64,000 nucleotides of DNA. Source: Raillietiella orientalis (lineage: Eukaryota). Within the stretch, counting starts at the first letter, position 1. Each line of letters begins with the position of its first letter. Positions 5,518-62,365 of the stretch are shown here, piece by piece. The stretch covers positions 1 to 64,000 of the forward strand of contig JAYWIR010000137.1 in assembly GCA_036172245.1 (NCBI GenBank), given 5' to 3'. The notes under the pieces are model-generated. The model was not told the origin of the DNA and did no database searches. It saw only the letters and a list, made by a program, of their open reading frames with translations. The position numbers and the translations under genes were made by a program.

Positions 5518-7886
5518 AATCGAATGCTTTGTGCAAATGTTCTGCTAGTGCCAAGGCTCCCAGCCTTTCTCCCGTCCGTCCGCACTGGCGCACGCAGTCG
5601 GTAGAAGGTCTTGCCGCTGTTCGGCTATCCGCCGCAACGCGCTTTTGAAGCTGCCTCCAGGTGCGCGCGAAAAGAAGGTTCGCATCGATGGATCTACCCG
5701 GTACAAAGTAAGACTGCTCCGGGCTTACCAAGGACTCCGCGAATTTCCCTAAGCGCATGACCCAGAGCTACAAAAGCAACTTGACGTCCGTATTCACTAA
5801 TGTGATCAGACTCCAGTTGTTGAGTTGGCGCAGATCCCCTCCTTTCGGAAGGAGACGCACCCTTGCTGAGCGGAAGGAAGAAGGGACATCGCCCGTCACC
5901 CTCATCAGCGTCGAGATTCTAAGAATCAGTGGGGCGAGTTCTGCCGCGAAGGTCTGATAGAACTATGCGGGCAGTCCGTCCTCACCTGGCGTCTTCCGTC
6001 TGTTGAGTCCTGCGATGGCGGAAGAAACTTCCTCCAACGTCAAGGGCTCGTGGAGACGATCGCGTTCCTCCTCGTCGATGCCATGTGCAGCCCGCGGCAA
6101 AAGTAGTTCGGAGAGGACTCTTTCCGTCAGGGAATTAGCGTAGAGCAAGGAGAATTTACGCTTTAGTGCTCGCCGCACTTCGGCAGGAGCCGTGCATTCC
6201 CTGCCTTGGTCGTCGAGCAGAATAGCCGCTCCAGACTGCCAGACCTGGCGCTCGGCCCTCGCCTTGTACTCTGCGAGTTGCCGGACTTCCGCACGTCTCG
6301 AGAAGGTGCAGGCCTGCAGAAATGCTCTGCTATTGGCCACGCCTTCCCCGGAGCCGCGTGGTAGCAGGTGCAGGGGGAACCGGTCGCAAAACTCGCGAAC
6401 CGATCTTTTAAGATGGTTTCAATCTGCGAGTTCCGGGATGACAAAGCCGCGAAGGAACTGGCGAAAATGCTCCGCCGCTTCGGGGTGACTCAGCCAATCC
6501 GCCGGCATCCTCCAAACATTGTTTGGAGGTCCCTTGCTTGGCAGGAGTAGCTCGAACTTCAGCCTATCATGGTCCGATAACGTATACGGCACCCTGCCTC
6601 TCCTTCCCACTCGCAAGAGTAGGTGTTCATCGAGGTAGAGGTGATCCATGCACCTTTCCAGTCCAGGCTTGCCGGCTTCCAAGTTACGCGCGTGCACCCA
6701 CGCGCATTCCTCTTCCATTCGCGACCGTTCCGCCAGAGACCGCGTCTCGTTGGAAAGCATGTGGACGTTGAAGTCCCCTGCGACAAGATGCGCCACTCTG
6801 GCTCCGGAGTTTCTAAGCCATTGGCTCTTCAGCATGTCGAAGAACTCGATTCTTTCGACACGCCGATGAGAGCCGCTCGACGCGAAGACGTTCGTTACGA
6901 CGAGGTCGATTGAATCTGACCATTGGAGTACAAGTTGGTCCATTCGCCCTTCCTGGTCGAATCGAACGCTGCGCACCGCTCCCACCATCTCACTATTGAC
7001 GAGAAAACCGACTCCGCACGATTGTGCAGAATCTTCTTGCCAGTACAAGGTGCCACTTGCGCGCTGTTCGATTTCCGCAACCTCCGCATCGGAGATGTAA
7101 TGCATCTCCTGAAGGATCGCCAAATCGAAATGTCGCAGGGTGTCTGAGACTTCGCGCCTCTTTCCGTTTCAGCGCAGCCCATTTACGTTCCAACAGGCTA
7201 CGCTGAATCGACGAAAAGGGGCGACTTCCTGCATTAAGGCTGGGAAGGTGAGCAAAGATTTCTCGCCTTGTCCGGCTAGTGGTCACGAGACAGAGCGGTC
7301 GATCTCGGAGACTGGACATCTCCATTCGAAGCCGCACTGCTTGTTGCCGGTAGCTCAGAGGTGAGGCTCTTTTCCTTTTCTTTGCTTCCCAGCAACAGTT
7401 CCTCCTCGGCAACCACGCGCTTGCGGGTCTTCGGGAGGCGATTGCGCAATTTCGGGCGGTATTCGCGCTGTGTGCTCTTTCTGTCGGACTCTGGATCAGA
7501 AGCCGACAGTCGAGGGCTTGCCAGGCGCTGCTGCTGTTTCCTGGAATTACGGAAATCGTTCGCTGCCTGTTTCCTAGCGCTTTCTGCAACTGCGGCTGGG
7601 ACTTTCGTCCTTTTAGCCGCAGCAGCAGCTTCCCGCTCCAACCGCGAGAGAACGACTGCGCAGGAGGAAAGAATCGCAATCTTTTTCTGGGAAGGTTTCC
7701 CGGGTTTCTTTCGCCCACTCACCTTCACACAGAGCTGCGAAGACCTTGATGGTTTCTTCCTAATGATCTTTCTCACCTGCATCCAGCCGTCTTCCTTCGC
7801 GTCGCAGTTATCTTTGCCATCCTGAGATGGCGCTGCTTCCACGGATGTAACAGGCGTTGCCTTGGGTGCCTCTTGGAGTGCTGCCT
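5518..7886 (-). mobile_element. Element B, downstream part: ORF1 C-terminus, APE, RT up to HKAFD
   Basis: TAATG stop/start at 7236-7232; LQEMH, GDFN, SDH, PGEDGLP. Ends at ...HLHKAFD, exactly at the 3' end of A. Confidence 0.9.
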
Positions 7887-8189
7887 ACAGGCAGGCGTAA
7901 GCAACTCCTCTAGCCATAGCGAGAGCCTTGCGCATGGGTGGTATCGCCGCCGCTGAACGAAAGGGAGGCGTGATTATTGCTAGTTTAAAACTATACCCAA
8001 TACTCCGCCATGGCAGTGTTTAAAACCACTGCCAAGGGAATTTTTGAGTGCCCTGAGAGTGCAAGTGTTTGAGTGAACGCCAGTGTGGAAAGAGTGCAAC
8101 CGGGGACCATCATCATCATCAGCAGCAGCGCCGAGAAGTCCACGGTGGAAGTCCTGCAGTGGTCCCGAGCAGCCGGAACAGCTGCCAGG

Positions 8190-9980
8190 ATGCAGGCATC
8201 TGGAGTTGGAGGAGTGGTGAGGCCGTCGTCCCCCATGGAAGCCATGGAGGTAACGTGCGGCAACGGCGAGGTGGCATCAGGCATGCCGAGGATCGCGCCC
8301 GCGGCGGGCTTTGCTGCGCCAGCGGCGGCGATGCCAAGGGTCGTGCCCGCGGCGACGACGGCAGAAATCGTGCCCGCGGCGGCGACGCCGAGCATCGTGC
8401 CCGCACCGGGGAAAGTCGCGCCTGCGGCGGCGATGCCGAGGGTGCCGCCCGCGGCGGTAACGGCGGCAACGTCGAGGTTTGCGCCCGCGGCGGCGGCGTT
8501 CCAGGCGGGACCCGCGGGCGCCCACGCGGTGCAGGGAGCGACGCCATCTTGTTCGGCTGCGGCGTCGCAGCCCTTTTTTTATGCGTCGGTGGCGGCTGGA
8601 CAGGCGAGTGTCCACCCACCAAGAAAATTCGGGAAGCCGCTATGCGGTGAAGTCCAAAAGGTGGATCGACCGATCGTGGAGTTAGGGCCGAATGTGAAGC
8701 CCATCATTTTCAAGACTGGGCTGATCAAGTTCAATAATATCAGGGAGGTGTATCTGTCCCTCGATAAAACGGACATGGACTTTGAACGCATTCAGGCGAT
8801 CATTCCATCGAACAACGGGTTCACAGTCTTTACAGACTGTGAAAACATTAGAGAGGGATTGATCCAGAAGGGGATCAATATACAAGTACGGATATTTTGT
8901 GGTATTGGCGAGATGCCATACACAACCGTCTTTTTAAACGGCATCTCCATCCTCACACCGCAATTAGCGGTGTGGAATTACTTGGAGCAGTTTGGGGGAG
9001 TTCTGCACTTTGATTTCCAGAACTTCTCTGGAAACATATTTTCTGGCGACATGATCGCCAACATGAAGTTGAGGGAGGGAGCGGTGATCCCTGGATTGGC
9101 CGTTATTGACGAACAATCCCAGGTAGTGAATGTGCGTTACCATCAACAACCGGTATTCTGCACCGGGTGCAAGCAGTTCTGGCACAGGGCCGGCGCTTGC
9201 CCAACTTGCCGCTGCTTACGCTGCGGCAAAGTAGGACATCAAGTCCGAAACTGCCCGCAGCCGGAGGTGTGCTCCTTCTGCAAGAAACACGGACATGCGA
9301 AATGGAGCTGTCCGGAGTTTGAAAACTGCAGAAGGATTCGAGGTCTCTCTCCCGTGAGAGAGAGAAAGATCAAGGAGGCCGAACAGCCTCAGAAAACAGG
9401 AAGGCCGAAGAAGGTGAAAGAAGCCGTCCCGGTGTCGGCGGACGGCTTCCTAGAAGTGGGAAAGAAGGGAAAGAGGAGGATGCTCGTCAAGGAGCGAGGA
9501 ACTCCTCAAATCCTGGAATCAGCAGAGCAGGAAGGCGAGAAGAAGGAGGTAGCGCAGGAAGGCGCGAAGGAAGAGAAACAGGAAGCCACTAAAGTGTCGC
9601 AGGAAGCTCTGCAGACCAGGGAGGTGTAGGCAACACTGGCGGAGGAGGTCATGGAAGTGCAGAGGGGTCCTCAGCAAGAGAAAATCTTGCAGAAGATCTG
9701 CACTGCACAAGAGAACACCAACCAGGTTGTGGAGGTCGCTGAACGCGATAAGTTAAAGGAAAAGCTTGTCGACGTGAAGGCAAACTTCTGCGCCAAGGTC
9801 GAGATAGAGGCGCTATCTCGAAAATCGATCGCGCGGGCGGAACACTCTACGGAGGAGGCGGAAATTACCGACCTCACAGGTACGGATAGTGAGGCCGGCA
9901 GCGAGAAGCCCGCTGCTTCTTCGACGTCTGGAAGAGCACGCTCTCCCAGACAGAAGAACCTCAGGAAGGCCAAGAAATAG
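8190..9980 (+). pseudogene. X ORF1, three CCHC knuckles, one in-frame TAG (9627)
   Basis: CTGCKQFWHRAGAC, CLRCGKVGHQVRNC, CSFCKKHGHAKWSC; ORFs 8073-9629 and 9651-9980 share one frame. Start codon uncertain. Confidence 0.85.
8290..8500 (+). repeat. Imperfect coding tandem repeat (PAAA / MPRVVPAAT units) in X ORF1
   Basis: Recurrent (G/C)GCCCGCGGCGGCG units. Confidence 0.75.
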
Positions 9981-9993
9981 GTCTTCCCCTTTT

Positions 9994-12900
9994 ATGACCT
10001 CTTCCCTATCGACCGCCAGGAGGCTAAACATCGCCTCCTGGAACGTAAACGGTGTGGTCGACCAGGGAAAAAGACGAAGGATTGTGCGGACCATCGCACA
10101 ACAAGACATCGTGTGCCTGTAGGAGACCCACAGGATTGGTCTCGAGATCAGCCAGCGAATGGAACGGCAATTTAACGGGCAGATGTTCGTCAGCGAAGGA
10201 GAACGGAACACGAAGGGTGTGTTAGTGCTAATAAAAAACCACCTAGCCAGCACTATTCTGGAAGAGTTCTGTCCCCAACCCGGACGAATCATCGGCGTGC
10301 AACTGGCCTGGTCCGCAACTGTTCACCTCATCCTGGTGAACGTGTACGGGCCGCACAGGCTAAAACATCGTTGTGCGGAGGCGCTGCATTCAGCACTCCG
10401 GCAAAAGGACGCCCCTAAGGACGCCGTGATTGCTGCTGGCGATCTCAACATCTTGGATGAGATCATTCATTCAGAAGACGCCAGAGGAAGGACGGCGTAT
10501 CGAAGGCTATCCGACGAGTTCGGACTGGTCTGGCGAACAGCAAGCCACAAGCGGTTCGATCACGTCGTGCACAGCACCGAACTTGGGAACCGCATCCAGG
10601 GGTTTCGCGACACTATGACTACGTTATCCGATCACCCCCTGGTGCGGTTTTCCCTAAGAACGGAGAATCCTTGCCGGAGGCAAGGCACCAGGGCGACGGT
10701 CTTCAGGATGCCCGCCTGGTTCGAAACCCATCCCGGACATCAGGCTGTCCTGGAGGCGATTCTGAGGGCAACAACAATCCGAAGGGTCGCCGATTAGAAC
10801 AACCTAAAACACAGGATACACCTGTTTGCAAACATGCAGTTCGGGGATAGGCGCTTGAGACAAGAGGCGTACCCGGAGCTGAACATCCAAGAACGCTCCC
10901 TCACAAAGTATTTCGATCAGTACGAGAGTCGGTACGTCCTCAATAGCATAAAAGAAAAAATCGGAGTACTCGAGAAGAGAAATCGTGCAACAGATATCTT
11001 CTGCATCCAGTACGACGGCCAAAAGCGACAGTCCTCTGAGGACATCGTGGATGCCTTTCACAGGCATTACACGAAACACTTCAGGCGACAACATCTGTGT
11101 CGCTGTAGTCAGCAGGCCTTCTTGAGCTATCTCGAGAAGAGGTCGGACGACCTCCAGCGGTACAGACTGGAGGAGGAGTTCTCCGAAGAAGAGGTGAAGA
11201 CTGCGTTTGGGCAACTTCGCAAGGACGAGGCTGCGGGCCCTGAGAGTGTACCCATCACGCACTATAAGCGGTGCCTGCACGCCTGCCTGCGCTTGTTCCA
11301 CCAGTTTACTCTCTGCATTCGGGAAGAAGGCAGACTACCTCAGTCCTTCTACGAGAGTCGGATGAGATTGCTGCCGAAAGGAGGCGACTCTACCCAGATC
11401 GCCCAATGGAGGCCAATCTCGATCCTGAACTCCGATGCCAAGTGGTTGGCGAAGATCTGGTCCAACCGCTTAGGCAAGGTTATGTCGAGGCTGATCTATC
11501 CGGTCCAGACATGTGCAGTCCCAGGACGACACATGTCGGACAATGTCAAGTGTGCTCAGGCCACTGTTGGACTCAGTCGATACGTCGGCGAGAACCTGGT
11601 GCTGGTGTTCACTGACATGGAGAAGGCCTTCGACTCCATCGACCACGGGATGCTGCTGAAGGTTCTGGAGAAGCTAGGGCTCACGGAACACTTCAGCAAC
11701 TTCGTGAGGGCGGTACTCCAGAACCAGTACTGCCGGATCAAGATCAACGGCCAGGAGACGGCAGCAATCAGGATGGAACGAGGAGTCCGACAGGGCGACT
11801 CGCTAAGTCGGATGCTGTTCGTCATCTATATGGAGGCGTTGTCGTCCTTTATCGAGAAGAGCGGACGACTGAGCGAAATCAACATCGATGGCCAGCGTCT
11901 TACCCATCTGGCATACGCCGATGATCTACACTTCTTCATCAAAGGAGAGAAAAATCAACGTGAGTTTCTGGATGTGGTGGACCTGATGGAACAGGGCTTG
12001 GGCTTAAAAATCAATTCCCAGAAGAGCCAGCTTTTGCCCGTCGGAATCCTGAACCTCTCCACTCTAACGGGTAGTGGATTCCGTACGGAGGACACGGCCA
12101 AGTACCTGGGAGTCTACATCGGCGACGACTCTGCGTGGAAGCTGCTGTGGAAGGCAATCCTGGGGAAAACGGCCAAGGAAGCAGCCAAGTACACCCAAAC
12201 GGACCTTGGGATGAAGCGAAAGGCCAACATATAGAACGGAGTACTCCTTCCGGAAGTGCTCTTCGGGGCGGCCTTCGCGAGGATGAACAAGGACACTACT
12301 AGGGAGTTCGACAAGCTGCAAAGAAAAACACTGTGGGGCCACTATCGCCCAAGAGTAAGACTGAAACCCCTGTGTTGTCCCAGGGAAGAAGGCGGTTCCG
12401 GGATGAAGTCGCTTGCACATTCCATGGAAATCATGGATACGCGACACATCCTGGACATTGCCACTCACTGGGATGACTGGCCGTATGCGGCGCACAGGGC
12501 CTACGCGTTGTTGCTTAACAACTCGAAAGGCCTGATGACTGCGCTGCTAGGCAAAGTAGGGGAGTGGATAACAATCGACCCGACCTGGAGGAGGAAGCAA
12601 CGGCTGGTGCGGAAGCACCAAATCAAGATCGTGCCGCGAAGCAGGGAACTCTGGGAGGACGAGTCCATCCTGGTGATCCCATGGATGCTTCCTGTCCCGC
12701 CGGACTCGAGAAGTTGGATCTACCAGCGGTCCAGAGTTACCCTACTGCAAATCCAGGAGTGGAGGCGAGGAGGCTACCTACATCAAACTCGTATACTTCG
12801 GTATACAGAGATGATGTTAGGAAGGTTTACCCACAGGACCCGCGAAGTGTGGTTCAACCACAACGACTTCGCATGGTCGAGGGTAACCAGAACAAACCTC

Positions 12901-13512
12901 CGAAGGCTTATTCAAGAAAACGACCGTGACACCAGTGCCCGCCAGGAAGCCACCGAACGCTACGGGAGTGAACGGTTCAACCTGTTAGCGATCGGCACGA
13001 CGCTCTGGAGGAGTGACCTTCCGCCGGGCACCCAGGATGACCTCCTCATGTTTGATCACGGAGGAATCCAGAGTGGGTCCCGATTGCAGCACTTCAAAGG
13101 AAGACGGGAAGACCGAGACTGCGCAGCATGTGGAGACGACGACACGAGACTTCACGTCTTGACGTGTCCCACACTGCTGCATGACTGGCTGATCCTGAAA
13201 AGGATCATAGGACTTACCATCAAGTCCGTTATGGAGATCCTCGCCGGGATGTTTCAGGGGGATGGTTATGTTCCCTGTTACAATCCCATGGTGAAGACGA
13301 CCATCGCCCTCTTCATCACCGCCATCCTTGTGCGGTGGTGGAAAATGAGGAAAGCCAGGAGAGCCGCACCACCGATGGAGATTTTAGAAGGGCTCTTGAA
13401 GAGGGAAATCGGAATCAGGAACTGCGGGAAGATCCACGCCTGGACGTACCGATTCATCCTGAAGAGGATCCAGGACGACGCCCGAGACCATCCAGCTGGA
13501 ATTCCCCCCTGA
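9994..13512 (+). pseudogene. X ORF2 (APE-RT-zinc finger): single frame with three TAG stops
   Basis: SWNVNG, NVYGP, GDLN, SDH, WRPISILNSDAK, DMEKAFD, GVRQGDSLS, YADD, KYLG, CAAC..H..C. Stops at 10120, 10795, 12232. Confidence 0.92.
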
Positions 13513-13619
13513 AAAGCAGAACTCTAGTGCAGCCCAAGGACCCCCAAGTGCAAAATGTTTGTATTGAGTGAATGAAAGTGCGAATGTAAATATTGTATTT
13601 TTATAGAAAAATAAACTTA

Positions 13620-15137
13620 CTCCACCCCTTGTGGTTCTTGGGGAAACTTAGTGATCGCGAGAGGCGCGGCCTCTTCCAGATCGGAGGGTTCGCGCGATGC
13701 CTTTGCGTCCCTTGGGTGCACTGCTGTAGCGGTTGTGCTCGCCCTAGCAGTTTCTTCCTTGGCCACAGTAGGCGCTGCTTCCGCGCGCGAGGACTGCGGG
13801 TTTGCCGGCTGTTTCTTCGCGGCACTCGGAGCCTGGGGCACCTTGGCAGCGGTAGCTTCATACGGCGCGGTGTTCTTTGCCGGCGGGCGCGTTTTTCCCG
13901 TATCGGGCGAACGACCGCATTCCGCGCCGCTCGTGGAGGCCTTGGTACGAGGCTTCGCGGTCGTGATTGCGTCAGTAGGAGGCTTTTTGACCTTCGGCAC
14001 GATGCCTCCTGCATTCAACAATTGGCTGCGAGGTCGCGTAGAAAGGTCGCATTCTTCGCGAGCTTCCTTCGGGTCGATAGCCGGAGGCTTTGCCGCGACG
14101 AGTTTTTTTGTGTTTTTTACCCCTTCTTGGTGGGGGCGAGAAACAGTTTTCTGCACGTGCGTGGTCGCGGTTTTGGCAACGCTTTTCGAAGCTTTGATGT
14201 TTCTTTCTCTCGATTCGCTTCCATTAATTCGCGATGCGAAACGCGATTCGTTCCTGCGCTTTTTGTTTTGTAAAAGGAGCTCCGGGCACGTTACTTTAGT
14301 GTGCCCGTGCTCGTGGCAGTAACGACAAGCGGCCCAGGGACACTTCGTAATGCGGTGACCCTCCTGCCCACATTCCGCGCATACACGCGTTTGCCCGGCA
14401 AACCACAGGCGGACCGCCATTCCATCCACCTGCTGTCGCGTGGGCATTGCACGACGATCCGTCATCGTCACTCGCACTTGCGCGAGCCCGCTGTGGTGGT
14501 TTTCGAACCCTTCATCAGGGTTTGGCAGCCTCCAACGCGCGAGGACGGTAGCGAATTTTTCAAGGGCCTCCACGACCTGGCGGTCCGAAAGGCCCTTACA
14601 CACTCCACTGAGCCAGACAACGAACGACTGGTCCGTTGTGACAGGGAGTATTTTCTTCCCACGAATGAGTAGCGGCGTGTGCAGCAAACGCTGCGTAAGG
14701 TGAGCGTCCTTACTGGAGAACTCCCAGTAGCCGCACCCACTCATGGGCATGATGGACTCCAGTTCGCCTTTTGGAACTCCAATCCGTTGTAGTTGCTGGC
14801 CAAACTCGCGCCCAACCCGCTCAGGCATAAGCACACTTAGCTTATACATGAGTGCAGGCGTGTAGCCATTTGCTACATACGCCTGAAGCTCAGGGTTGTC
14901 GGGCGAAGGTCCCATCGTAGCCGCAAGGGCAGCGACCTGGGCGAATGTCCTCGCCGTCCGCGAGGACAGAGGCTCCTTGCTAGCAGCCGTAGCAACCATC
15001 TCAGGAGCAGGTGGCGTTCCCTTCTTGCGGCTGATGTTCTTCTTTGCTCCCATTGCAGCACAGAAGCACAGCAGAACAAAAACACACAAGAACCAATCTA
15101 CCGCGGAGCGACGCAAAAGCACGTCCGTATGCGACCG
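13620..15137 (-). mobile_element. Element B, 5' part: 5' UTR and ORF1 (ATG 15053)
   Basis: GGACGTGCTTTT at 15126-15115; knuckles CAECGQEGHRITKC and CRYCHEHGHTKVTC. Confidence 0.9.
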
Positions 15138-41542: not shown

Positions 41543-41757
41543 GGATTCGGCGTTGCCACCCGGGTACGCCCGGGGCGTTTATTAATAAACTTTACATGCG
41601 TCGTACAAGGTCCCACCACGGCCGTAAACACAGGACCTTTCGGGACACTGGGACGCAGCCCGGCGTGGCACTCCCCGAGAGCGAAGGGGGATGGGGATGA
41701 GACAAAAAGTAAAATAAAAAGAAACAAACAAAAAGAAGTTGGAGGGCAGGGAAGGGA

Positions 41758-47109: not shown

Positions 47110-47205
47110 CGGACACCAACGATGTTCCACACCAAACAGCACAAGAAAAAACCGCTTCCTTTCGACTCACTCGGGAGCGAAGGAAAAACACGTCCACTCG
47201 CCAAG

Positions 47206-50861: not shown

Positions 50862-50867
50862 CTTAGC

Positions 50868-52855: not shown

Positions 52856-55261
52856 TCGCTGGGCGTAATGCCGGCCTCCGCTCGGCGCGTAGATGTTCGT
52901 AACGACCAGGTCGATCGATTCGGACCACATGAGGAAAAGTTGGCCCACACGACCTTTCTCGTCGAAACAAACGTTCCGCACCTCCTCCGCCACCCTGCTT
53001 CGGACGAGGAACGCGACTCCGCACGTGTGCGCGGAGCCTCGCCGCCTGTGTAGCGTCCCGCCCGCCCGCTCATCCAGATCCGATGCCTGCCGTACGGAGA
53101 TGCTATGTATCTCCTGCAGCAGCAGCTGATCTAACGCGCGCAAAGCGTTGGCTACCGTCCGCCTTTTGTCAGCATCACGTAGCCCGTTGACACTCCAACC
53201 GGCCACGGTGACGCGACGAGCGGACGCGAATCCACGCATCACTGCTGCGGACATGACGGAGTGCTCCTCGCCCCGTCCGGCGAGAAGTCAGCTGGTAGGA
53301 GAGCGGATTGGGAAGCGGAATCGCTCCCGTTCCATGCCACATCGCGCCCAGCTGAGTCCTGGGAGCCGAGGATCATCGCCTCGGTCTCCGTGCAAGAGCC
53401 GAAACCGCCTCCGGCAACAGGCTCGTGCATTCGCACTTTAGCCCGGCTCGCTGCCGGCTTACCCCGGGATGCGCGCTCCATTTGTTTGCACTTGGACTCC
53501 ACCTCGGAGTCCGAGTGCCGGGCGCTTGATTAACGTTTTGCCATTCTCTTTTTGTTCCGGCAGGTGGAGGCTTGCCCTGCCCGCGCGGAGGTCGTCGCAG
53601 TCGCCAACGCAGCTTCCGGAGCTTTGGCTTCCGCAGCCGCCCTCTCGCGCGAAGCGACGGAGACAGAGCACGCAGCCGTAGTGCGTACCTGGGTACGCAC
53701 GTTCTTCGGCGTGCTTCTCTTTTGCCTCCCACCCACCTTAAGGATGGGGAATATTGAAGGGTCAACCTTCTTCTTCCCCTTTGTGGGCGTCCTGGAGACT
53801 CGAGTCCAGCCCGCGTCGGGGACGCCCTCCTGGGAGGCCGACGCCTCCCTCAATTGTTTGGCCGGAGATGCCGGCTCAGGTTTCGCGCTCGCGGCGAGAG
53901 ACGGCTCCGTCCCCGTTATGCACTGCACCTGCTCCTTAGTTGATGCGGGCGAAACGGCGGTCATTGCCGTCGTCCCACGAGGCGCTATTGCAGCCTTCGC
54001 TGCTGGTGCCTTCGGCGTGGAAGACGTGATCTCCACCGCCGTAGGAGTAGACTGCCGTTCAGAGGCAGCTCCGAGGGTACCCGCGCACGGTTTCCCGTGT
54101 ACTCCGCTGGACGCGCAAGCGGACACGGACGGTTCAGCAGCCTTGATTGAGTGTGTGCCCGCACTCTTAGGCTGCTTCGAAGGTGGCGATTTTCCCCCAG
54201 GGCGACGTGGCATCTTTGCCGTCTGCGCGGTTGTCTGGGATAGTGGCTTTCCTGATGCAACCGCGCCCTTATTCGCGGGACCGCCACTCGAAGATGCCCC
54301 GCCCTTCGCGTCCGATTTCTCCCGTGGCACAACGGGGGATCTTTTCGGCGCGGACGGGGTCGATTGTTGGCGGCTTTTCGCCTGTCGCTTTCTCTTCAGC
54401 TCGGCGCACTCTTTGATGGAGTGGCCGAGCTGTTTACAATAGCGGCAGTTGCGTGGAGGGCACGTCCACGGACGGTGGCCCTCTGCACCGCAAATGCCGC
54501 AAGCCGGTCGCTGACCTGCAAATTTAAGGTGGACGATCGCATCGCCCACCTGCAAGTGCGGAGGCATTTGCCTATTATCCGCCATGGTGACACGCGCCAT
54601 GGCAAGTCCGCTGTGGAGAGATGCAATCCTTTTGATCGGATTGTCTGCTCTCCACAGCGCGTGCACCGTGGCGAATACACTTAGTGCAGCGACGAGCACG
54701 CAATCGGGCGTGTCCACCTGGACGGCGGATAATCGGACCACGAACGACTGGTCCATGGCCGACGGGACGACCTCCTTCCTGCGGATATTTAGCAAGGTGC
54801 GGAGAAGGAGATGGACTAGGGATGCCTCTTTGCAGTGCTCCTCCCAGCTTTCGAGCGCGTTAACCGGCATGACGGCCAGGAGGTCGCCCTCTCGGACCCG
54901 ACGCGCAAAAGCTCGTCCCACAAATTTTCTCCGACCCCGTCGAAGATAGAAGCACTCACCGGATAGCAGAGCGCAGGCTTGTAGCCATGGGCTGCATATG
55001 CCTGCAGCTCTGCTTCGTCGGGCGGTGCTCCGTTGGCTGCCGCCACCTTGACGACGGCGGCGAAGCTTCTCGCCGGTGGCGAGACACAAGAATCAGAGGT
55101 GGACCGGACATCTGGAGTAGAGTCTCTACTGCCAGTAGCAGCCTCCACATCCATCTCTTGCTGCAGGGGCTCCGTGGACATCCCAGTGGACGCACTCGGG
55201 CGCACCACACACAAGAAGACGGAAAGGATTCACGTTCGAGGAGCAACACAGAACACGTCCT
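52182..55261 (-). mobile_element. Element J, 5' part: 5' UTR, ORF1, TGATG junction, APE
   Basis: GGACGTGTTC 55260-55251; CGICGAEGHRPWTC, CRYCKQLGHSIKEC; TGATG 53241-53237; WSVNG, LQEIH. Confidence 0.88.
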
Positions 55262-55817
55262 TGCAGCGTTGTCGTCGAGCGTATTACCGACAGCTGCGAA
55301 AAAGAACTAAACGCTACCGATGACAATCCCTCTGATGACTCTGTCAACAGCGAGGAGAGCGAATCGGCGGCGGCGTCTTTCATCGACACCACCATCGATG
55401 TAGCCTTCGCGCGAGCCTCTGAGGAGCTCGCTGCCTCGTTGCAGCCAGAAACCTCCACGGCAAGCAAAAAGGCCGTTAGGCGTCGGACCTCCCCTCAGGA
55501 GTCCCCCACTTCCGACCCCGAGGTGGAGGCCGGAAGCGAAGCCTCCGTTTGCACGGCACCACGCAAGAAGGCTGGACGTCAGTCCACAAAGCCGAGAAAG
55601 CTCGTCTCTCCCGTCGAAGCGGAAGAGATGGCTTCCGCAAGCGAGGGTGCCATGAGCGTGAGAAACTCGCGGGACCCGTTGCCCGAGAGACTCCCACGCG
55701 CGGACAAGTAGGGGATGTAGGGGAAACAGGCCGGAAAGGTGCTTCAGGTGCCTTAAAAGGCGTAAACCCCCATGGACATGCCGCAGGCGTGATCTCTGCA
55801 GAATAAGTGCAAGAGGT
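55262..55817 (+). mobile_element. Element I, right part: ORF1 C-half plus a short APE remnant
   Basis: Starts with the TSD and aligns with A 1148-1670; then jumps to VISAE (A ~1857-1885). Confidence 0.85.
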
Positions 55818-56435
55818 TTCTCACCCGGTCACGCCGGGGTGTTTATTTCATATAAATACAACATAAAGAAATATATAAAATAAACCGGTTTGGGACCATG
55901 CACCCAACCGACGAAGCACAAGTATCAAGAGTACATTGCTGGCACGCAGGTCAGAATTACACAGAACGGTTTGTGGAAACTGGGAAAACGAACAAACAAA
56001 AACAAAAGAAAAAGAAATCAGCGGGGGACGCGGGGACAAGGATCTTTGAAATCCCTCTGGTTCTCTCCGGGGTAATAGTGATGGCACCGGTATTCTAGCA
56101 GAGCGAGCGGGAAAGGGGTATGGGTGGTCTTCAGGACGTAGTGGTCACCGGATGAAGCCCTTCCTAAAAGTCTGTAAACCGGCGGTGGATGCCGGCGATG
56201 TCCTCTTTCACCTTGTCACGAAGATGAGACCACTTAGTAGAGTTTTTCATGAATTCTGCTGCAAACCGGTGAGCCTCGCTTCGCTGCGCTGACAACTCCA
56301 GGGCGTAGCGGGCCTTCACGATGGCGCGAATGCAACACATGGTTGCGACAATCGCGCCTACCGAAAATCCATTCCTCCTGAAGAAGCGCCGCAGCACATC
56401 AATAGCAGTGCCTCTCTGCGGCAGGATGGCTGAAA
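55818..56435 (-). mobile_element. Element O: LINE 3' end fragment
   Basis: CCIRAIV...AGIHRRF; terminal motif 55846-55818. Confidence 0.8.
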
Positions 56436-56450
56436 TCAGCCTGTTTTTTA

Positions 56451-57440
56451 GCCTGGCTTCGGCGGTCGAGGAGTTCTTCGACCTGCTGCATCGGGGAACC
56501 AGACTTACGGTGAACAGGGCGAAGTCGCCCGTGATGCCAGTTGATGCGACGTGGGCAGAACAGCAGGTCTGGGTCCGTTTAGGGATCACTGCGGTGAAGT
56601 ACTTCTTGCTTCGGTCACGCAGTGGCGCCAAATGGCAAGATAAAACTCTTTACTCCCCCTCCTGTTCGTGAGGTCCAAGCCGCTCGGTGCGTACACCTTG
56701 GTGACGATCACATAAATCGAATCGAGCCACCTGACAGTCAGCTAACCGAGACGACCGTGATCGTCGAACCACACGCCCCGAGCCACGGCCTCGACAACTT
56801 TCCGCAGTAGGGAGAAAACAACGCAACTCTTCCGCTAGCCACAACTATACGATAGCCGCCCTCAGAAGATCCGTTAAATCTCCTGCGCTCCTACAGTGGA
56901 CACGTGTTTTCGTGTCTTCGTCGAGAAAGACGTGGTCCAAGCTGCTGAACATCCCGCTTATTTCTGTCAACAGGTTGCGCGTGCGCATGGCAGCGCCCAA
57001 CTCGTTGATCGAGTTCCCCTGTGCTCCGGGCTGATCTGAGAGCAGGCGGACGTTGAAATCGCCTGCTATCATATGCGCCTTTCGCACGTCCACGTCCACC
57101 AGCCATTCGCGCTTCAAGGTTTCCAGTAACACGTCGCGCTGCTGGTATCCCTGTTTACCGCTAGGAGCGTACACATTGGTGACGATGAGGTCGATCGAAT
57201 CGGACCATCTGAGAATCAGTAGGTCGATCCGTCCGTCGTCCCTAAAGCGCACGCCCTTCACGGGTGCGTTAATGGCTGACTTTAGGAAGAACGCGACCCC
57301 ACAAGTGTTGCGGGCGCCGCATCGCCAGTACAACCGCCCTCCCGCGATCGTTTCTATCTCCTGGGAGTCTTTTGCGGTGATCACGTGGATCACCTGCGAA
57401 AGCACCAGGTCAAAATCTCGCAAGGTGGCGGCTGTATCTC
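56451..57440. mobile_element. Short fragments: RT (+, 56451-56605), APE (-, ~56668-56810), APE (-, ~56905-57440)
   Basis: AVEEFFDLLHRGT (A-like); NVYAP, GDFN, DHVF. Confidence 0.75.
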
Positions 57441-57498
57441 GAAATTTTGTAATTTCAAAATTTTAGTACTCAAAGCCCCGGCTTACCCAGGTGAAAAA
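57441..57498 (+). mobile_element. Element S: isolated 3' tail (V family)
   Basis: CCCCGGCTTACCCAGGTGAAAAA, same tail and flank as 59916-60004. Confidence 0.7.
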
Positions 57499-57814
57499 CC
57501 TTGTATACAAGCGATGGCTTGTATTCAGAGGCCCGATAGGCGGCTTCCTCGCCAATGGCCTTAGCACTGGGGCGGCGACCATTTCACTCCAAGTCTTCGC
57601 CGGCTGCAAAGACGTTCCAGGGACTATTGCCCCATAGCTCTAGGTCTTGTGGTAGGACTTGCCTCTCCCACAACTACATCCATCGCATTGTCCTCTGGCA
57701 CGGCCGCCATCGGACACCGACGACCCACACTTTACACCTGACTACACTAAAAACTCCGGTTGCTTCTCAGACAAGCGCTGGCGGAGCGACCAAAAAAACA
57801 CGTCCACCCACACC
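57497..57814 (-). mobile_element. Element T: 5' UTR and ORF1 start, L/N-type
   Basis: GGACGTGTTTTT 57805-57794; MAAVPED...YKPSLVYKV. Confidence 0.78.
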
Positions 57815-57825
57815 GGCTTTCGGCG

Positions 57826-59070
57826 ATGCCACCCGGATACGCCGGGACGTTTATTAAAAACATTTCGACGGTCAATACAGAACGTGGTACAAGGCCTCAC
57901 TGACGGCCACGCAATACTGGAACTGCCGGGACACCGGAACGCAGCCCGGTGTGGCTCTTCTCGGCAGTGGAGGGGGATGGAAGAGAAAAATGGAATAAAA
58001 TAAAAGAGAAAAACAAACCACAAAAAAAAAGTTTGGAGGGCCGGGAAGGGATCACAGAAAACTGCTGGGAGCGCCCATCCTTTGCAGGATGCCTTCTAGT
58101 TCCATTTTCAATTTTCCTAGATGGGGTAATCGGTTAGCTCTCTGCAGGAAGCGAGAAGCATACTCGGTGACGTCCCTTACGATGCAGTCTTCATCTTTGG
58201 CATCACTCCAGGCCGCCACGATCCCACGAATGCAGCAAAGTGCTGCCAGGCCTGCGGCTGGACTGAGGGCGTCCCGCACGAAGACAAGACTGAAGACACA
58301 TCCAACATTGCCATCATCCGGTATCCGGAGGGCCGTTTTAAAACGATCCCAAAGAATCTCGACGGCAGGGCATTCAACTAACAGGTGAGGGAGCGAATCC
58401 CGCTCCCCACACCTGACACACGCAGGATTTACTCTTACTCGCGTCCAGTGGAAGCGGCGCGCGTTGCAGGGTAGACCCCAATGCAGCCACAGTAGCGCCG
58501 ATTCTTGCCACTTCAGGTGAAGAATCCTGGATCCAAGTAGAACCGGGGGCCACTTCAGGTCATCCAATCGAATGCCGAGCAGCTCGCCCCATCTTCTTAA
58601 TCCACGCGGCTGGAGACTAGGGGTCGTTGCATCTGTCAACTCTCCCATGGTCCAGCCGCACATCATCTCTCTGCCTGCGATACGGCAGCAGACTTGCCAC
58701 CTTGGCTTCCGGCTTTCGTGAAGCGCCCTTTGGAGGAAGGGCATCGCCGTAACAAGGGGTGTGCCTTCCGCCCACTTGCAACTCGTTGGAAATTCAAGAA
58801 TTTCACGGAGAATTCGGCGGGCGTAAAAGCCGACTCGCAGGCAGTTCATCCGGTCTTCGCAGCTCTGGTTCTGCTTGGCCCAGGTGCCAGCAGTCTCCTC
58901 TAGCAAAGCGGAGCAGTTGGCGGGGCCACAAACCATCCAGTTCTCCTTTGCCAGGGTTGCCATGCGGCCGAGCAGTAGACCGCATCTTCGAATCTTCCGG
59001 CCAGGGCACAGAAGAAACGATGCGAGTCCTTCGCAGAGGGACACACGCCTGTCCAGGAGGCGGGCCGGAA
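57826..59070 (-). mobile_element. Element U: ORF2 C-terminus and 3' end, L/N-related
   Basis: RRCGLLLGRMATLAKEN, CVRC..HL..C; terminal motif 57855-57826. Confidence 0.88.
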
Positions 59071-59079
59071 GGCGTGGAC

Positions 59080-59946
59080 GTCCCGGAAACTAGCTGACGC
59101 TAGTACCCCGAGTGTGCCGCCGAACGGAATTGTACGCTGGGGCGCGCTGCTCGGCATACCTCCGAAGGAGGTGAAGTGGCCCCCAGCGTCTTGGGACAAC
59201 GGCACCCTTCACCTGCAGTGGCAGGAGACGGCGTTTCTTCTGCTCTTCTGGGACTTTTAAGCAGAGCACGCCTGTCTCACTGGACATCGGGGAGTATTGA
59301 TGCTAGTTGTGCAGAGTGCGGGGAAAGAGAAACCTTCTCCCACTTAATCATAGAATGCGTTGCCCTCCTCGAGATGTGTAACCGACTCTTGTCGATCCTG
59401 AACATTCCGGTGGGCGACCCAAAACATCTATTGAGACGCCTCCTACGCGAGATGGCTTGTTAGCCTCCGGATGCGTAGCAGTGCTCTGCTGCATACGCGG
59501 TATCCTGCATAAGTGGACCGCGTCAAGGAGAGGAAGAACCAGTCGGAGAGCCATCCACTGGGCAGCGATCTCTTTGGAGAAAGCCTGTTGTTGGCGCCGA
59601 CTTAATATACATTTGCCGGCATTTGTTTGCATCCGAAACCGGATGCAAAGGCCTCCTCACGGCGCACCGTGATTCCCTATCTCCCTTTCCATTCCCCAAA
59701 AACATTACCCTCTACACGTTATTCTTTGTTTCTTTGTTTTATTTTTTGTTTTGCCCGCCCCGGCGCTAGTGAGAAGGAACATATCGGCGTCCGGGTCGGT
59801 AAGGACAAGTGCAACGACACTACGATAAACTTCTGAATGTCCTAAAGAGGAAAATTAACCTTGTTTAAAAATTCAGACCTTATTATGAAATTTTTGTATT
59901 CTCAAAAATTTTAATAATAAAAGTCCCGGCTTACCCTGGTGAAAAA
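59080..59946 (+). mobile_element. Element V: ORF2 C-terminus and 3' end, K-related
   Basis: LLSRARLSHWT, CAECGERETFSHL..C; terminal motif 59916-59946. Confidence 0.82.
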
Positions 59947-60027
59947 CCTTGTATACAAGCGATGGCTTGTATTCACAGGCCCGATAGGCGGCTTCCTCTG
60001 CCAAGGCATCCGCAATAGTTTTTTAGG

Positions 60028-60349
60028 TTAGCCAGCGCAAACATGTCGTCGGCTGCCCAGTGGGCCCATCTGCCACAGGGCGTAAGGAGAGAGATCGCCG
60101 GCATCCATCGCCGGTTTTGAAAGGAAGGAACGGATTTACCAAAGACCCCTGTCCCCTGCCCTCCATATTTTTCTTTTATTTTTTTTATATAGTAGTGTGT
60201 TTGTGGTCCCTTCCCTCCCGTTCCGGACTTTCGGCATACCGACCTGCGTGTCGGGGATCCCACCCCCTTCGTCTCTTGTTTTCCCCTTTGTCCGGGAACC
60301 CTGTTCACGGATAGTTTATAATAAACGCACCGGCGCACCCAAGTGACAA
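60028..60349 (+). mobile_element. Element E2: 3' end, E family
   Basis: Collinear with 20260-20579. Confidence 0.88.
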
Positions 60350-62365
60350 CCAGCCACCCCCCTGCGATCCTCTCGATCTCCTGGGCGTTCTCCCCGGTAA
60401 TCACGTGGATCTCCTGCAGGAGTGCCAGGTCGAAGTCACGCAGGGTGCCGGCCGTGTCCCGTCCGTTGCCGTCGTCGCGCAGCCCGTTGACGTCCCAGCA
60501 GGCTACGCGTAATCGACGGCGACAGGCGAGCCCAGGTGTTACTCCTGGGAAAGTGGCAATGAGACTCCCGCCACCTGGTCGGGCATGACGGATGGAGGCA
60601 TGGGGGCACCGCCCAGCGGTTCTCCCACCTCCATGGGGGCCGATTCTTCGGCTGCGTTGGACGGTAAGGGGGAGCGGTTCTCAGCACTCTGCTCCCCCTC
60701 TTCCATGACCATCTCCTCCGCAGGCTCCACCGGTGGAAGGGGGAGGCAATGCCCTAGCTGCTCCCCCTCCTCCATGGGGGTGGCCGGCTCCTCGGTGGCG
60801 GAGGGTGGGAAAATTCCTCCCTCCGTTCCCACGCTGCCGGCTTCCCACTCGGCTGCCGGTGCGTCCCCCTCGCTCTTCGTCGGGATGCGCCTCTTGGGAT
60901 TCTTGGACTTCCGTCCAGTCTTCTTCGGAGGCGCCTCCGTGAAGGAGGACGCACTTCCGGCATCCGGGTCGTGGTCACCTGTCGGAGATGCCCTGGTCGC
61001 GGCCGGCCTTTGCAAGGCCTTTTGCGCTCCGTTCTCACGGTCCGCGAGTTCGGCCGCGAGCTCTTCCGCCGCCTGCTGGAAGGCGGCCTCGTCGATCGCG
61101 GCGAGCGCGTCGCGCGAACCCTCTGTTTGCACAGAGGGTTCGCCTTCCGTGATCGCGTTATCGTCGGCATCGACGCGGGGGATATCTCCCCCGGTGGCGG
61201 TCTCGGGTACCTCCACACGCTCCAAAGCGACCGAACATTCGCGGATCAACGCGCGGCGTTGTCTCCTATTTAAAGGAGACGTCGCGGTTTCCGCTGTTTA
61301 CCCTTCGGTTTTCTTTGATTTCTTAGCTTTAGGCTTCGCCTTCTGCCAGCCTTCGCTCTTTTCAGCGTCGTCGGTAGATTCCATGACCGGCGTTTGCTGT
61401 ACGGGCTCGGGCTCCGGCTGTGGGTTCCGCCTCACGGGTGCCTTCGCAGGGTTTTCCGTAGCCTCCGCGCGTTTCCCTTTGGCCTTTTTCAAGGCAGCGG
61501 GAGCCGGGGGTTCGCGCTTCGGGCACACTTTGCGGAGGTGGCCCTTCTCTCCACAGTGGAAACACTGGATGTGAGGGCACCGCTTTTTCAGGTGCCCTGT
61601 GGCATCACAGTGTCCACAGTACTTGGGCTTGCCCACGTACCAGACGTCGACGGTCTCGTTGCCGACGTCTAGTTTGTGGGGTAGCCCACCGTTTTCGTGA
61701 ACAGTTACACGGGCACCAGCCATGCCACTAAACAGTCTTCCGTAACTCTGGAAGACGTTGGGCTTGGGCCATAGCGCGTGAACCGTTCAGTATTTTACGA
61801 GTTCCTCCTGCACGTCGGCTTTCAACATGCGGAGGGTGACTCCCGTGAGGTGCGTCACCACGGAGCGATCCTCCGTTACCGGGAAAACCTTCCGGCCTTC
61901 CAGTGTGATTGGCGTATTCAAGGAGGGCTGCAGGAGATGGGGCTGCAGCCACTGAACTCCAGGTCTTCGGCGATGCCGAAGACGCATTCGAGGGTGCAGC
62001 TGCCCCCTTTTTCAAGGAGGCGGTCGCGCCCTTTTCCAGGGTTGCGGTTGTCCCCTTTTTCAAGGGGGAGGTTGCACCCTGTTCCAGCGGGGCTTTTGCC
62101 CTTTTTTTCAAGGGGGCATTTGCCCTCGCTCCCGAGGCGGCGGTCGCCCCCTTTTTCAGGGGTGCGGCTGTCGTCGCCTCCGTGGGGGCGGTTGCGTCCA
62201 CCTCCGTGGGTTGGGGAGAGGAGCAAGGCTCTCCCCCTCCTATATCCATCGCGGTGTCCTCAGGCATTTCCGACATTGGACACCGCAGATGATTCAGACA
62301 CAAACACAATCGAAATCAACCGCTTTACACCAGGCGCGGAGGAGCGCTACAAAATCACGTCCGCA
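60348..62365 (-). mobile_element. Element Y: 5' UTR, ORF1 (62276-60539), APE start; L/N-related
   Basis: GGACGTGATTTT 62362-62351; CGHCDATGHLKKRC, CFHCGEKGHLRKVC; TAACACCTGGG; ends at IAGGWL. Confidence 0.88.
61995..62180 (-). repeat. ~30-bp coding tandem repeat (PLKKGATAAS-like) in the Y ORF1 N-terminus
   Basis: About six units of (P/T/S)L(K/E)(K/Q)(G/R)A(T/K). Confidence 0.8.

Follow-up and report, generated by a model that had tools for sequence, protein, structure and literature searches.

Nearly all LINEs nested within other LINEs lie antisense to their hosts in a 64,000-nt window of the Raillietiella orientalis genome

Background

One of the questions raised by the stretch of DNA analysed here, a window of 64,000 nt, is why LINEs that lie within other LINEs should so regularly be found on the strand opposite to that of the copy they interrupt. 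A preliminary description of the window claimed a near-absolute antisense polarity of nesting, and offered strand-polar target recognition or selection as its cause. As discussed below, the near-uniform antisense nesting of LINEs in LINEs within the window is real and is confirmed, while the interpretation as a whole is partly supported.

LINE content of the window

L1/Tx1-like LINE fragments make up about 98% of the window (1-62868), and a search of the flank at 62869-64000 found no LINE similarity. The component parts are an ORF1 with CCHC motifs and an ORF2 with APE endonuclease, reverse transcriptase (RT) and zf-RVT regions. Pfam finds Exo_endo_phos and RVT_1 in a 1215-aa ORF2, the combination that marks an APE-type LINE of the L1/Tx1 group, along with zf-CCHC in a 559-aa ORF1 and zf-RVT in the fragment termed K'. 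The best PDB match by sequence is human L1 ORF2p (E ~5e-46), with R2 at 1e-12 to 1e-14. The best named database match of ORF2, an RT of Xenopus tropicalis at 24% identity, is the one pointer to a place in the Tx1 clade, and all database homologues are at most 29% identical. On the domains and the PDB match, the APE-type LINE families of the window are assigned to the L1/Tx1 group.

The fragment map was built by tblastn with ORF1 and ORF2 of the one intact copy, with the right end refined, and family limits were drawn by eye from an identity matrix of the 3' regions, in which the families are 38-72% alike. Many elements are full length. Elements have a short 5' UTR of their own that begins with a conserved GGACGTGyTTT motif, and the conserved tail reads AATAAA-CG-CCCGG-loop-CCGGG-TG-nnAAAC, without poly(A). 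For five elements (B, D, F, H and Y), the window contains no 3' end. From left to right the map reads as follows.

1-5518, + strand: A, near full-length LINE with 5' motif at 22-32 and 3' terminal hairpin at 5518; inserted antisense in B, H-L-H-K-A-F-D codons
5519-15142, - strand: B, LINE split by X into 5519-7923 and 13648-15142; cut by A at ORF2 residue 588 (5519), full 5' end at 15142 adjoining C
7924-13647, + strand: X, divergent LINE (ORF2 ~25% aa identity) whose 5' end is a complete U4 snRNA (7924-8061); antisense in B ORF1, TSD of ~15 nt with 3 mismatches
15143-17292, + strand: C, 3' part, C/J family; antisense in D, with the 3' end at the C-S-V site of ORF1 (reference residue 375)
17293-18490, - strand: D, 5' part of an A-family copy (ORF1); full 5' terminus at 18490, adjoining E at the H-K-A-F codons
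18491-20580, + strand: E, 3' part starting at ORF2 residue 585; 3' end antisense in F at ORF2 residue 79-81
20581-22378, - strand: F, ORF2 residues 1-79 and ORF1 from residue 121; right end interior (5'-truncated), adjoining G
22379-23600, + strand: G, 3' part starting at ORF2 residue 887, A-related (69% nt); 3' end antisense in H at ORF2 residue 284
23601-24350, - strand: H, ORF2 residue 284 down to ~39, boundary approximate; right end interior, adjoining I
24358-24835, + strand: I, left piece, A-family ORF1, residues ~222-375
24836-27268, - strand: J, 3' piece, ORF2 residue 366 through to the 3' end; J inserted antisense in I, 12-nt TSD TGCAGCGTT[A/G]TC
27269-29848, + strand: K, 5' piece up to ORF2 residue 311; K inserted antisense in J, ORF2 residue 366
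29849-33192, - strand: L, 3' piece, ORF2 residue 171 through to the 3' end; L inserted antisense in K, G-F-G codons (residue 311)
33193-39099, - strand: M, full-length LINE on the same strand as its host L, in the L endonuclease at the G-D-F-N codons; the sole sense nesting, 10-nt TSD GATTTCAATC / AATTTTAATC
39100-41551, - strand: L, 5' piece
41552-47214, - strand: O, the sole intact copy (ORF2 at 41761-45405, 1215 aa; ORF1 at 45490-47166, 559 aa); head-to-tail upstream of L, antisense in K at L's site
47215-50189, + strand: K, 3' piece, starting at ORF2 residue 312; 3' end antisense on J' at residue 366
50190-50867, - strand: J', with K' forming a second junction of a K 3' end with J
50868-52185, + strand: K'
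52186-55261, - strand: J, 5' piece, from the complete 5' end as far as ORF2 residue 366
55262-55814, + strand: I, right piece, A-family ORF1 from residue 371, beginning with the second TSD copy
55815-56455, - strand: P, 3' fragment of a divergent LINE; 3' end antisense in I close to the ORF1 end
56456-56605, + strand: Q, short interior fragment, junctions uninterpretable
56607-56906, - strand: R1, A-family short interior fragment, junctions uninterpretable
56869-57824, - strand: S, L-related, interrupted by W2 at ORF1 residue ~91-94
57443-57497, + strand: W2, 55-nt W-family 3' end, antisense in S
57825-59068, - strand: T, L-related (71-72% nt) 3' part; 3' end head-to-tail on the S 5' leader (GCCGAA...)
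59069-59948, + strand: W, K-related (66% nt), 5'-truncated; 3' end antisense on V
59949-60020, - strand: V, ORF1 fragment
60026-60351, + strand: E2, E-family 3' end of ~326 nt (3' UTR and the end of ORF2); antisense in Y at ORF2 residue 78-80, the site common to E in F
60352-62367, - strand: Y, ORF2 residues 1-78, ORF1 and full 5' end, the latter adjoining Z
62368-62868, + strand: Z, L-family ORF2 residues 500-665, cut on its left side by Y; right end adjoining sequence without LINE similarity

Orientation of the nested elements

The tblastn map contains 33 boundaries between neighbouring LINE fragments, 28 of them opposite-strand and five same-strand (L/M, M/L, L/O, R1/S and S/T). A census of 3' ends that was blind to orientation yielded 12 by regular expression and a further four by eye (X, M, W and W2); an nhmmer profile made from these 16 tails recovered all 16 (E <= 0.026), and in the window it returned nothing further below E = 4.5. 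Thirteen of the 16 ends (A, X, C, E, G, J, L, K, K', P, W2, W and E2) are antisense to the ORF of another LINE, one (M in L) is on the sense strand of its host, and two (O and T) adjoin the 5' leader of a member of their own family on the same strand. Eleven 5' ends are present, and nine of them carry the motif GGACGTGNTTT, K and X being the other two; the motif has 11 matches where 4.6 are expected, nine of these at element starts. The neighbour of the 5' end is on the opposite strand in seven cases and on the same strand in one (M), with two tandem arrangements and one window edge.

By two-sided binomial tests, the bias holds whether events in the window are counted (16/17 antisense, p = 2.7e-4), or 3' ends in host interiors (13/14, p = 0.0018), or classes of family and site (11/12, p = 0.0063). 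Orientation is a property of the family, so the effective sample is the last of these, about 12 classes and fewer than 17, and each target site rests on 1-3 cases since a single window was analysed. Inserts that are 5'-truncated and dead follow the same rule, all five (W, W2, E2, K' and P) being antisense.

These counts bear out the near-absolute antisense nesting of the preliminary description, including its observation that even the divergent X obeys the rule, TSD-flanked and antisense in the ORF1 of B. The independence of its roughly 17 junctions was overstated, given the smaller number of classes. Most of the listed pairs have a defined terminus (A/B, X/B, B/C, C/D, D/E, E/F, G/H, J/I and K/J; L and O, the latter listed as N, in K; P, listed as O, in I; E2/Y and Y/Z). 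The pairs F/G and H/I are indeed on opposite strands, but they are interior-to-interior joins, as are T/W, V/E2, P/Q and Q/R1, so that which partner is insert and which is host can only be inferred. Two pairs drop out as antisense nesting: S and T are co-oriented head-to-tail, and the flank paired with V (62869-64000) is the part of the window devoid of LINE similarity. The exception had been given as M in L alone; M, a clean insertion flanked by TSDs, is the only sense nesting, but the head-to-tail pairs O/L and T/S are co-oriented as well.

Insertion units and recurrent target sites

Both flanks are present in the window for five insertion units (X/B, J/I, K/J, L plus O in K, and M/L), and across all five the reading frame of the host continues at the identical residue. 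The host frame resumes at the same residue, so these junctions are element ends rather than inversions or assembly breaks, either of which the preliminary description had named as refuting its reading. The duplications flanking elements measure 4-17 nt and were checked where both host halves are present; for A to I on the left, the window includes just the right half of each host.

Six families reuse one nucleotide and one strand in different hosts, with 2-3 termini each. The A-family site, at the HKAFD codons of the RT, is reached from the 3' side by A in B and from the 5' side by D in E. Other shared sites are ORF1 residue 375 (C-S-V) for C and J, ORF2 residue 79-81 for E and E2, residue 366 for K and K', and ORF1 residue ~91-94 for W and W2, and GCCGAA directly follows L, O and T. 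A recurrent nucleotide combined with TSDs is the pattern of sequence-specific insertion in the Tx1 clade. When the nick sites were compared with one another, no common motif or microhomology was seen.

In three of four pairs of repeated junctions, similarity between the insert sides significantly exceeds that between the host sides: 89.8% for C/J vs 78.9% for their hosts D/I (p = 6e-10), 94.0% for K/K' vs 86.7% for J'/J (p = 9e-8), and 88.2% for E/E2 vs 81.5% for F/Y, dropping to 67.4% further out. That the inserts are closer than their hosts fits independent hits rather than copied junctions. The fourth pair, W/W2, is indistinguishable from a copied junction (p = 0.55). The J'/K' repeat has a period of ~1995 nt, and the layout of K and K' is also that of a 1995-nt tandem repeat.

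Origin of the strand bias

The reading that we favour, with a probability of roughly 0.75, is that these are related APE-type LINE families, each of which integrates at its own fixed ORF1 or ORF2 site in other LINEs by target-primed reverse transcription, with orientation set at integration. Judging from the geometry of the junctions, the first nick would fall in the coding (sense) strand of the host, and the freed 3'-OH would prime cDNA synthesis from the tail of the element; with first nick and priming on the sense strand, the new copy comes to lie antisense. Orientation would then be a fixed property of family and target, decided at integration, which would also account for dead, truncated inserts that follow the rule. 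The M family, at GDFN, would be one that targets the sense orientation. Second hits at a reconstituted target would give the co-oriented head-to-tail pairs (O-L and T-S), and serial hits on fresh inserts would build a strand-alternating Russian doll. Of the two causes first proposed, strand-polar target recognition is thus upheld by the recurrent nucleotide and strand, the TSDs and the three of four junction pairs that look independent. Selection on individual copies is not needed, the truncated inserts being antisense even though dead, but selection might still act on the choice of target by families.

The fact that 11 of 12 classes use the sense strand exceeds independent coin flips (p = 0.006). 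The likeliest source of this skew across families is a constraint on target choice, either selection against sense targets or shared integration machinery. In the first case, sites would arise on both strands and sense-inserting lineages would fare worse, leaving antisense families to dominate, possibly through read-through from the host promoter, upstream host ORFs that block translation, or mobilisation of chimeras of host and insert. We regard this account as tentative. It is in keeping with the skew itself, with the single occurrence of a sense family in the window (M), and with the individual 5' UTRs and their GGACGTGyTTT motif, which suggest reliance on an element's own promoter; but convergent transcription in antisense nests could interfere equally, and one window gives no measure of family success by orientation. 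A somewhat more doubtful account is a generic strand rule, by which integration into a LINE target starts on the coding (non-template) strand whatever the local site, possibly where the coding strand of a transcribed target is displaced in an R-loop or where LINE RNA pairs with the homologous template strand. The antisense classes are scattered over ORF1 and ORF2 in families as little as 38-72% alike, sense strands have A > T and G slightly > C, and M, sense to L, runs antisense to K, the host that encloses L, all of which such a rule would accommodate; yet the strand is already fixed by exact nucleotides, with TSDs, that are particular to each family, and M is a clean sense insertion. Were the generic rule true, retrotransposons that parasitise their siblings would be intrinsically antisense, their strand-alternating nests would yield double-stranded RNA, and the GDFN family would be an escape.

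Loss after insertion is a much poorer candidate than either. Here both orientations would insert and sense nests would be lost, for example by direct-repeat recombination, as might be expected when host and insert are homologous LINEs and when the one surviving sense nest, M/L, joins two of the least-similar lineages (48% nt, 3' region). Against such loss, the very short W2 (55 nt) and E2 (~326 nt) are antisense at the usual site of their family, truncated inserts show the bias without exception, and an inter-family identity of 40-70% is low for homologous recombination. It is least credible of all that the strand switches are inversions, inverted segmental duplications, twin-priming 5' inversions or assembly errors. 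The window does contain large inverted repeats (e.g. 15138-17773 vs 24358-26992, 87.5%), the 1995-nt tandem-like repeat and several interior-to-interior junctions, but 16 junctions fall exactly at the conserved 3' tail and nine at the 5' motif, host frames resume at the same residue with TSDs, and the arms of repeated junctions are 6-21% diverged, unequally on the two sides, as assembly duplicates would not be. Twin priming is ruled out because neighbouring opposite-strand segments belong to different families (43-69% nt) and to distant element coordinates.

Relation to other nested and site-specific elements

The literature searched gave no description of such a LINE-in-LINE orientation rule. 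The closest likeness is to members of the Tx1 group that target transposons (Tx1 in the piggyBac Tx1D, Tx1-Mar in Mariner-N4_AMi), which are likewise APE-type and occupy fixed places in a multicopy mobile element. Passages in Kojima 2015 (PMC4494074) describe Tx1-Mar as inserted in both directions, opposite at one Mariner site and the same at a second, and some Tx1 families as carrying snRNA-derived 5' heads; X, with its complete U4 snRNA head, resembles the latter. In the window, the place of DNA transposons, snRNA genes or microsatellites as targets is taken by the protein-coding regions of sibling LINEs, and about a dozen families or sites take part, reciprocally and nearly all on the same strand. 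The pattern shows every family to have its own target sequence and strand in the genes of other LINEs, almost always opposite to the copy that is struck.

The rDNA- and telomere-specific APE/RLE LINEs R1, R2 and TRAS/SART keep one site and one orientation per family, with precise junctions and head-to-tail tandems at reused targets, all of which recur here. R1 and R2 are inserted in the sense orientation of the rRNA gene, whose transcription they rely on, whereas in the window the preferred orientation is antisense, the target is protein-coding, and elements seem to carry 5' UTRs of their own.

Like the window, the L1-type Zepp and ZeppL LINEs of green algae form GC-rich islands of almost nothing but nested LINE copies that target existing copies, according to portions of Blanc 2012 (PMC3446292) and Craig 2021 (PMC8226300). 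Sections of Craig 2021 (PMC8226300) describe Zepp clusters as tandem arrays, mostly of 3' ends due to 5' truncation, and attribute those of Chlamydomonas to a single ZeppL family. In place of a co-oriented, 5'-truncated array of one family, the window has about 12 families or sites, many full-length copies without poly(A), nine motif-bearing 5' ends, fixed sites, and alternating strands at 28 of 33 boundaries.

The dense, fragmented nest also recalls a piRNA cluster, in that read-through could give antisense RNA, as the preliminary description supposed for a trap resembling a siRNA/piRNA cluster. Arthropod piRNA clusters are dense nests of fragmented transposons, and those of the one-strand type share one absolute orientation. 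The elements of the window do not share an absolute orientation but are balanced between the strands, 13 on + and 15 on -, and to that extent the window is unlike a one-strand trap of the flamenco type.

One theme recurs across this LINE island: sibling LINE families land on each other's most conserved codons, such as the K-A-F-D codons of the reverse transcriptase (RT) and the G-D-F-N codons of the endonuclease, and nearly all of them insert backwards relative to their target. In what follows, letters denote individual LINE copies or fragments, and residue numbers follow ORF1 and ORF2 of the intact copy, O.

Element ends

The elements lack poly(A) and finish instead in a conserved 3' tail made up of AATAAA (present in every tail, about 25 nt upstream of the end), a short CCCGG-loop-CCGGG hairpin, and then TG..AAAC. 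Sixteen such ends were counted, 12 by regular expression and four (X, M, W and W2) added on inspection. A profile built from the 16 tails recovers those 16 at E <= 0.026, as it must by construction; the informative part of the search is that it returned no additional 3' end better than E = 4.5 on either strand of the window.

At full-length 5' ends the motif GGACGTGyTTT lies 1-24 nt from the junction. It matches 11 times in the window where 4.6 matches would be expected, nine of them at element starts and two internal ones with one mismatch, and one element, K, begins without it.

GGACGTGyTTT at element 5' ends
22-32
15116-15126
18469-18479
39083-39093
41518-41528
47185-47195
55250-55260
57795-57805
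62352-62362

The GGACGTG portion matches the fly downstream promoter element consensus, RGWCGTG. A role as such an element, with an initiator 28 nt upstream, was not supported, since only O fits convincingly among the eight ends with enough upstream sequence.

The divergent LINE X has a different head, a U4 RNA that forms its 5' end and stops 12 nt before the ORF1 frame opens.

7924-8061, plus strand, complete U4 spliceosomal snRNA (Rfam RF00015, 83.9 bits, E = 3e-17, model positions 1-138)

Either X is a template-switch chimera or it represents a family transcribed from a U4 gene. No ribozyme was found at the 5' ends in Rfam at E <= 1, the matches being this U4 snRNA and two weak miRNA-family hits.

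Structure of the nest

Every fragment was placed on the coordinates of the intact copy, and boundaries were set by protein coordinates together with end motifs, because a definition based on the pile-up of BLAST HSP ends proved too noisy between families. The right-hand nest lies entirely within the window: I (plus strand) is host to J (minus), J to K (plus), and K to both L and O (minus), with M (minus) inside L. Beyond each insert the host frame continues at the matching residue, at ORF1 371-375 in I, ORF2 366 in J, ORF2 311 in K and ORF2 171-173 in L. J is flanked by a target-site duplication of 12 nt with one mismatch, M by one of 10 nt with two mismatches, and K by one of about 4-5 nt; for X in its host B the duplication is about 15 nt long and has three mismatches.

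On the left side, the window contains only the right half of a deeper nest. There the 3' end of A meets B, the 5' end of B meets C, the 3' end of C meets D, the 5' end of D meets E, the 3' end of E meets F, F adjoins G, the 3' end of G meets H, and H adjoins I. Each of these junctions with a defined terminus abuts the interior of an opposite-strand element; at F|G and H|I two element interiors meet. Fragmentation is greater at the right end (55815-62868), with P in I, W2 (a 55-nt tail) in S, T head-to-tail on S, W adjoining V, E2 in Y, and Y in Z.

Twin priming was rejected as a source of the mosaic, the neighbouring segments coming from different families, and so was the idea that breaks cluster around ORF2 residue 870, the three breaks there (of G, K' and T) falling at different nucleotides. 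Contigs from one DNA run (Logan, 13001-33000, share 0.15) are short and 95-99% alike, and no listed piece spans a junction; the only joint among them, from 18751 to 26657 on opposite strands, connects two homologous copies.

At 48872-52855 a unit of about 1995 nt is repeated in a tandem-like layout, and the junction of the K tail with J is present twice. The K parts have diverged by 6% and the J parts by 13%, and the arrangement may reflect two hits with a later deletion or a single duplication with later conversion.

Orientation of inserts relative to hosts

The preliminary description held that inserts are opposite to their hosts at about 17 junctions, the exception being M in L. The antisense nesting is borne out: the strand switches at 28 of the 33 boundaries between adjacent fragments, and 13 of the 16 3' ends adjoin antisense coding sequence, one (M) adjoins sense sequence, and two (O and T) adjoin a same-family 5' leader in the same orientation. 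Antisense events with a defined terminus are those of A, X, B, C, D, E, G, J, K, L, O, P, W, E2 and Y, so that the divergent X obeys the rule, as had been claimed. K' and W2 are also antisense, each possibly a copy of one event; with K' dropped, 16 of 17 events are antisense (p = 2.7e-4), and with W2 dropped too, 15 of 16 (p about 5e-4). The event count covers inserts whose host could be named, which leaves T out. Absolute strands are balanced (13 elements on plus, 15 on minus), so the rule concerns orientation to the host element and not to the chromosome.

Since orientation is a property of the family, classes of family and site make the fair sample. There are 12 of these: HKAFD (RT), ORF1-375, ORF2-79/81, ORF2-284, ORF2-366, ORF2-311, GDFN (endonuclease), ORF1-545, ORF1-91/94, X's site in the ORF1 linker of B, B's site in C, and Y's site in Z. 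Antisense classes make up 11 of these 12 (p = 0.0063), a soft count in that families were delimited by an identity matrix and tree of the 3' region and five hosts are without a 3' end in the window.

M is indeed the only sense insertion event, a clean one at the G-D-F-N codons of L, but it is not the only co-oriented junction, as O|L and T|S are head-to-tail. At both, the tail of the upstream element is followed by a leader of 19-23 nt (GCCGAA...) and then by the GGACGTG of the downstream element.

L-family 5' leaders, 19-23 nt, beginning GCCGAA or GCCGGA
41529-41551, minus strand
47196-47214, minus strand
57806-57824, minus strand

The leader resembles the L-family target but differs from the local host, and in L its last 9 nt are those of O's own G-F-G site (the ORF2 site at which L and O lie in K), not those of K's. 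It is too unlike K's sequence to be a fresh duplication. These features suggest that the leader was carried in the RNA, and that the tandem was made by a second hit at a reconstituted target, in which case O would be a further antisense hit on K. The leader may guide precise 5' joining and allow tandem re-insertion.

Fixed target sites

Several families in the window recur at one nucleotide. The tail of A adjoins the antisense of B's H-L-H-K-A-F-D codons, and the 5' end of D adjoins E starting at H-K-A-F, the two hosts at this site, B and E, belonging to different families. C and J both lie 4 nt beyond TGCAGCGT in ORF1 (C-S-V) of two A-family hosts, E and E2 both lie at ORF2 residue 78-81, K and K' both follow GCTGCAGCCGAA at residue 366, and W and W2 both precede CTTGTATACAAG in ORF1. 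GCCGAA follows L, O and T alike.

Such recurrence could also come from segmental duplication of a single junction. In three of four pairs, however, similarity is significantly higher between the inserts than between the hosts, which is expected when younger inserts strike older, separately diverged hosts: 89.8% for the C/J inserts against 78.9% for the D/I hosts (p = 6e-10), 94.0% for K/K' against 86.7% for J'/J (p = 9e-8), and 88.2% for E/E2 against 81.5% for F/Y, dropping to 67.4% further on. These repeated junctions are not simply copied, and duplication was rejected for C|D versus J|I, E|F versus E2|Y, and K|J' versus K'|J; the pair W|V and W2|S is indistinguishable from a copied junction. 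Because K and K' are also arranged as the 1995-nt tandem repeat, they were not counted as a firm second event.

No common motif or microhomology is evident at the nick sites. CTGCAG occurs 6-20 nt beyond the junction in three of the 12 target classes (the 3' ends of K/K', C/J and P; p = 4e-4), but it was chosen after looking, is given no weight, and may be due to chance.

Origin of the polarity

Every one of the five 5'-truncated inserts is antisense at the site used by its family: W (880 nt), W2 (55 nt), E2 (about 326 nt), K' (1318 nt) and P (up to 640 nt), the shortest being mostly 3' UTR. This argues against recombinational loss of sense copies and against selection on the copies' own expression, and the polarity is therefore decided at integration. 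Strand-polar target recognition or selection had been proposed as the cause. Fixed family sites accord with the former, whereas selection, where it acts on the expression of copies, is disfavoured by the truncated inserts. At the junctions, the strand that runs on into cDNA is the host's sense strand, a geometry in which the first nick would fall on that strand. The skew among family and site classes may stem from selection on the choice of target, from a generic strand rule (exerted by transcription, an R-loop, or RNA-DNA pairing), or from inheritance plus chance.

It had also been suggested that read-through from 3' ends yields antisense RNA in the manner of a small-RNA cluster. In structural terms, transcription that continued beyond a 3' end would indeed run into another family's antisense sequence, but every tail contains an AATAAA, and the even split of absolute orientations is at odds with a one-strand cluster.

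Relation to known elements

Known targets of site-specific LINEs are rDNA, telomeres, snRNA genes, microsatellites and a small number of DNA transposons, and the orientation of such LINEs is usually attributed to a need for co-transcription with the target. If the pattern described here is true genome-wide, it offers a natural system for what sets strand choice in target-primed reverse transcription. Repeat islands could then grow without harm to host genes, and nests with both strands of every family, and potential double-stranded RNA, would be a by-product of integration chemistry needing no selection for a trap. With O intact and its target in K defined, strand choice is open to bench test.

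Tx1-group LINEs use DNA transposons as targets, and Tx1-Mar inserts into Mariner-N4_AMi pointing the opposite way at one site and the same way at another (Kojima 2015, PMC4494074). Some Tx1 families have snRNA heads, which the U4 head of X recalls (Kojima 2015, PMC4494074). The nested clusters of Zepp and ZeppL have been described as 3' ends arrayed in tandem (Craig 2021, PMC8226300; Blanc 2012, PMC3446292; Craig 2022 preprint), and the available portions of these three sources make no mention of orientation. Nor was an antisense rule for LINE-in-LINE nesting found in the available portions of the literature.

Make-up of the island and the intact copy

Positions 1 to 62868 consist of fragments of non-LTR retrotransposons, and G+C in the window is 54-64%. 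Pfam recognizes APE-type endonuclease and RT domains on both strands throughout the island, together with a CCHC knuckle in ORF1 and a zf-RVT domain close to one ORF2 end. The island stops abruptly within the RT of Z, at residue 665; positions 62869-64000 showed no LINE likeness when compared by tblastx with the remainder of the window, and none of six ORFs there has a Pfam domain that passes the threshold.

O (41552-47214, minus strand) is the sole copy in the window with both reading frames open.

41761-45405, minus strand, ORF2 of O (1215 aa)
45490-47166, minus strand, ORF1 of O (559 aa)

Its identity with L, the neighbouring copy in the tandem, is 94.6% across 3.35 kb, so O may belong to a recently active family. 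The best solved-protein match in a sequence search is human L1 ORF2p (E = 4.7e-46), with R2 proteins much weaker, and public protein collections yielded no protein relative above 29% identity.

Tandem repeats within coding sequence are found in ORF1 of F (21276-21461) and L (40063-40243), with 57-nt units, and near the start of ORF1 of Y (62001-62167), with a 24- or 48-nt unit. Window-wide (for example, at 1-2000 and 20001-22000), the sense strands of the elements have more A than T and slightly more G than C, the AT skew being +0.16 where A lies on the plus strand and -0.26 where F lies on the minus strand. Finally, a stretch of about 76-90 residues separating K-A-F-D from the W-E-T-G region, which holds the first RT motifs in other families, is missing from both C (15143-15240, plus strand) and J (26890-27100, minus strand). 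The C/J lineage may be non-autonomous, yet it has been mobilised at least twice.
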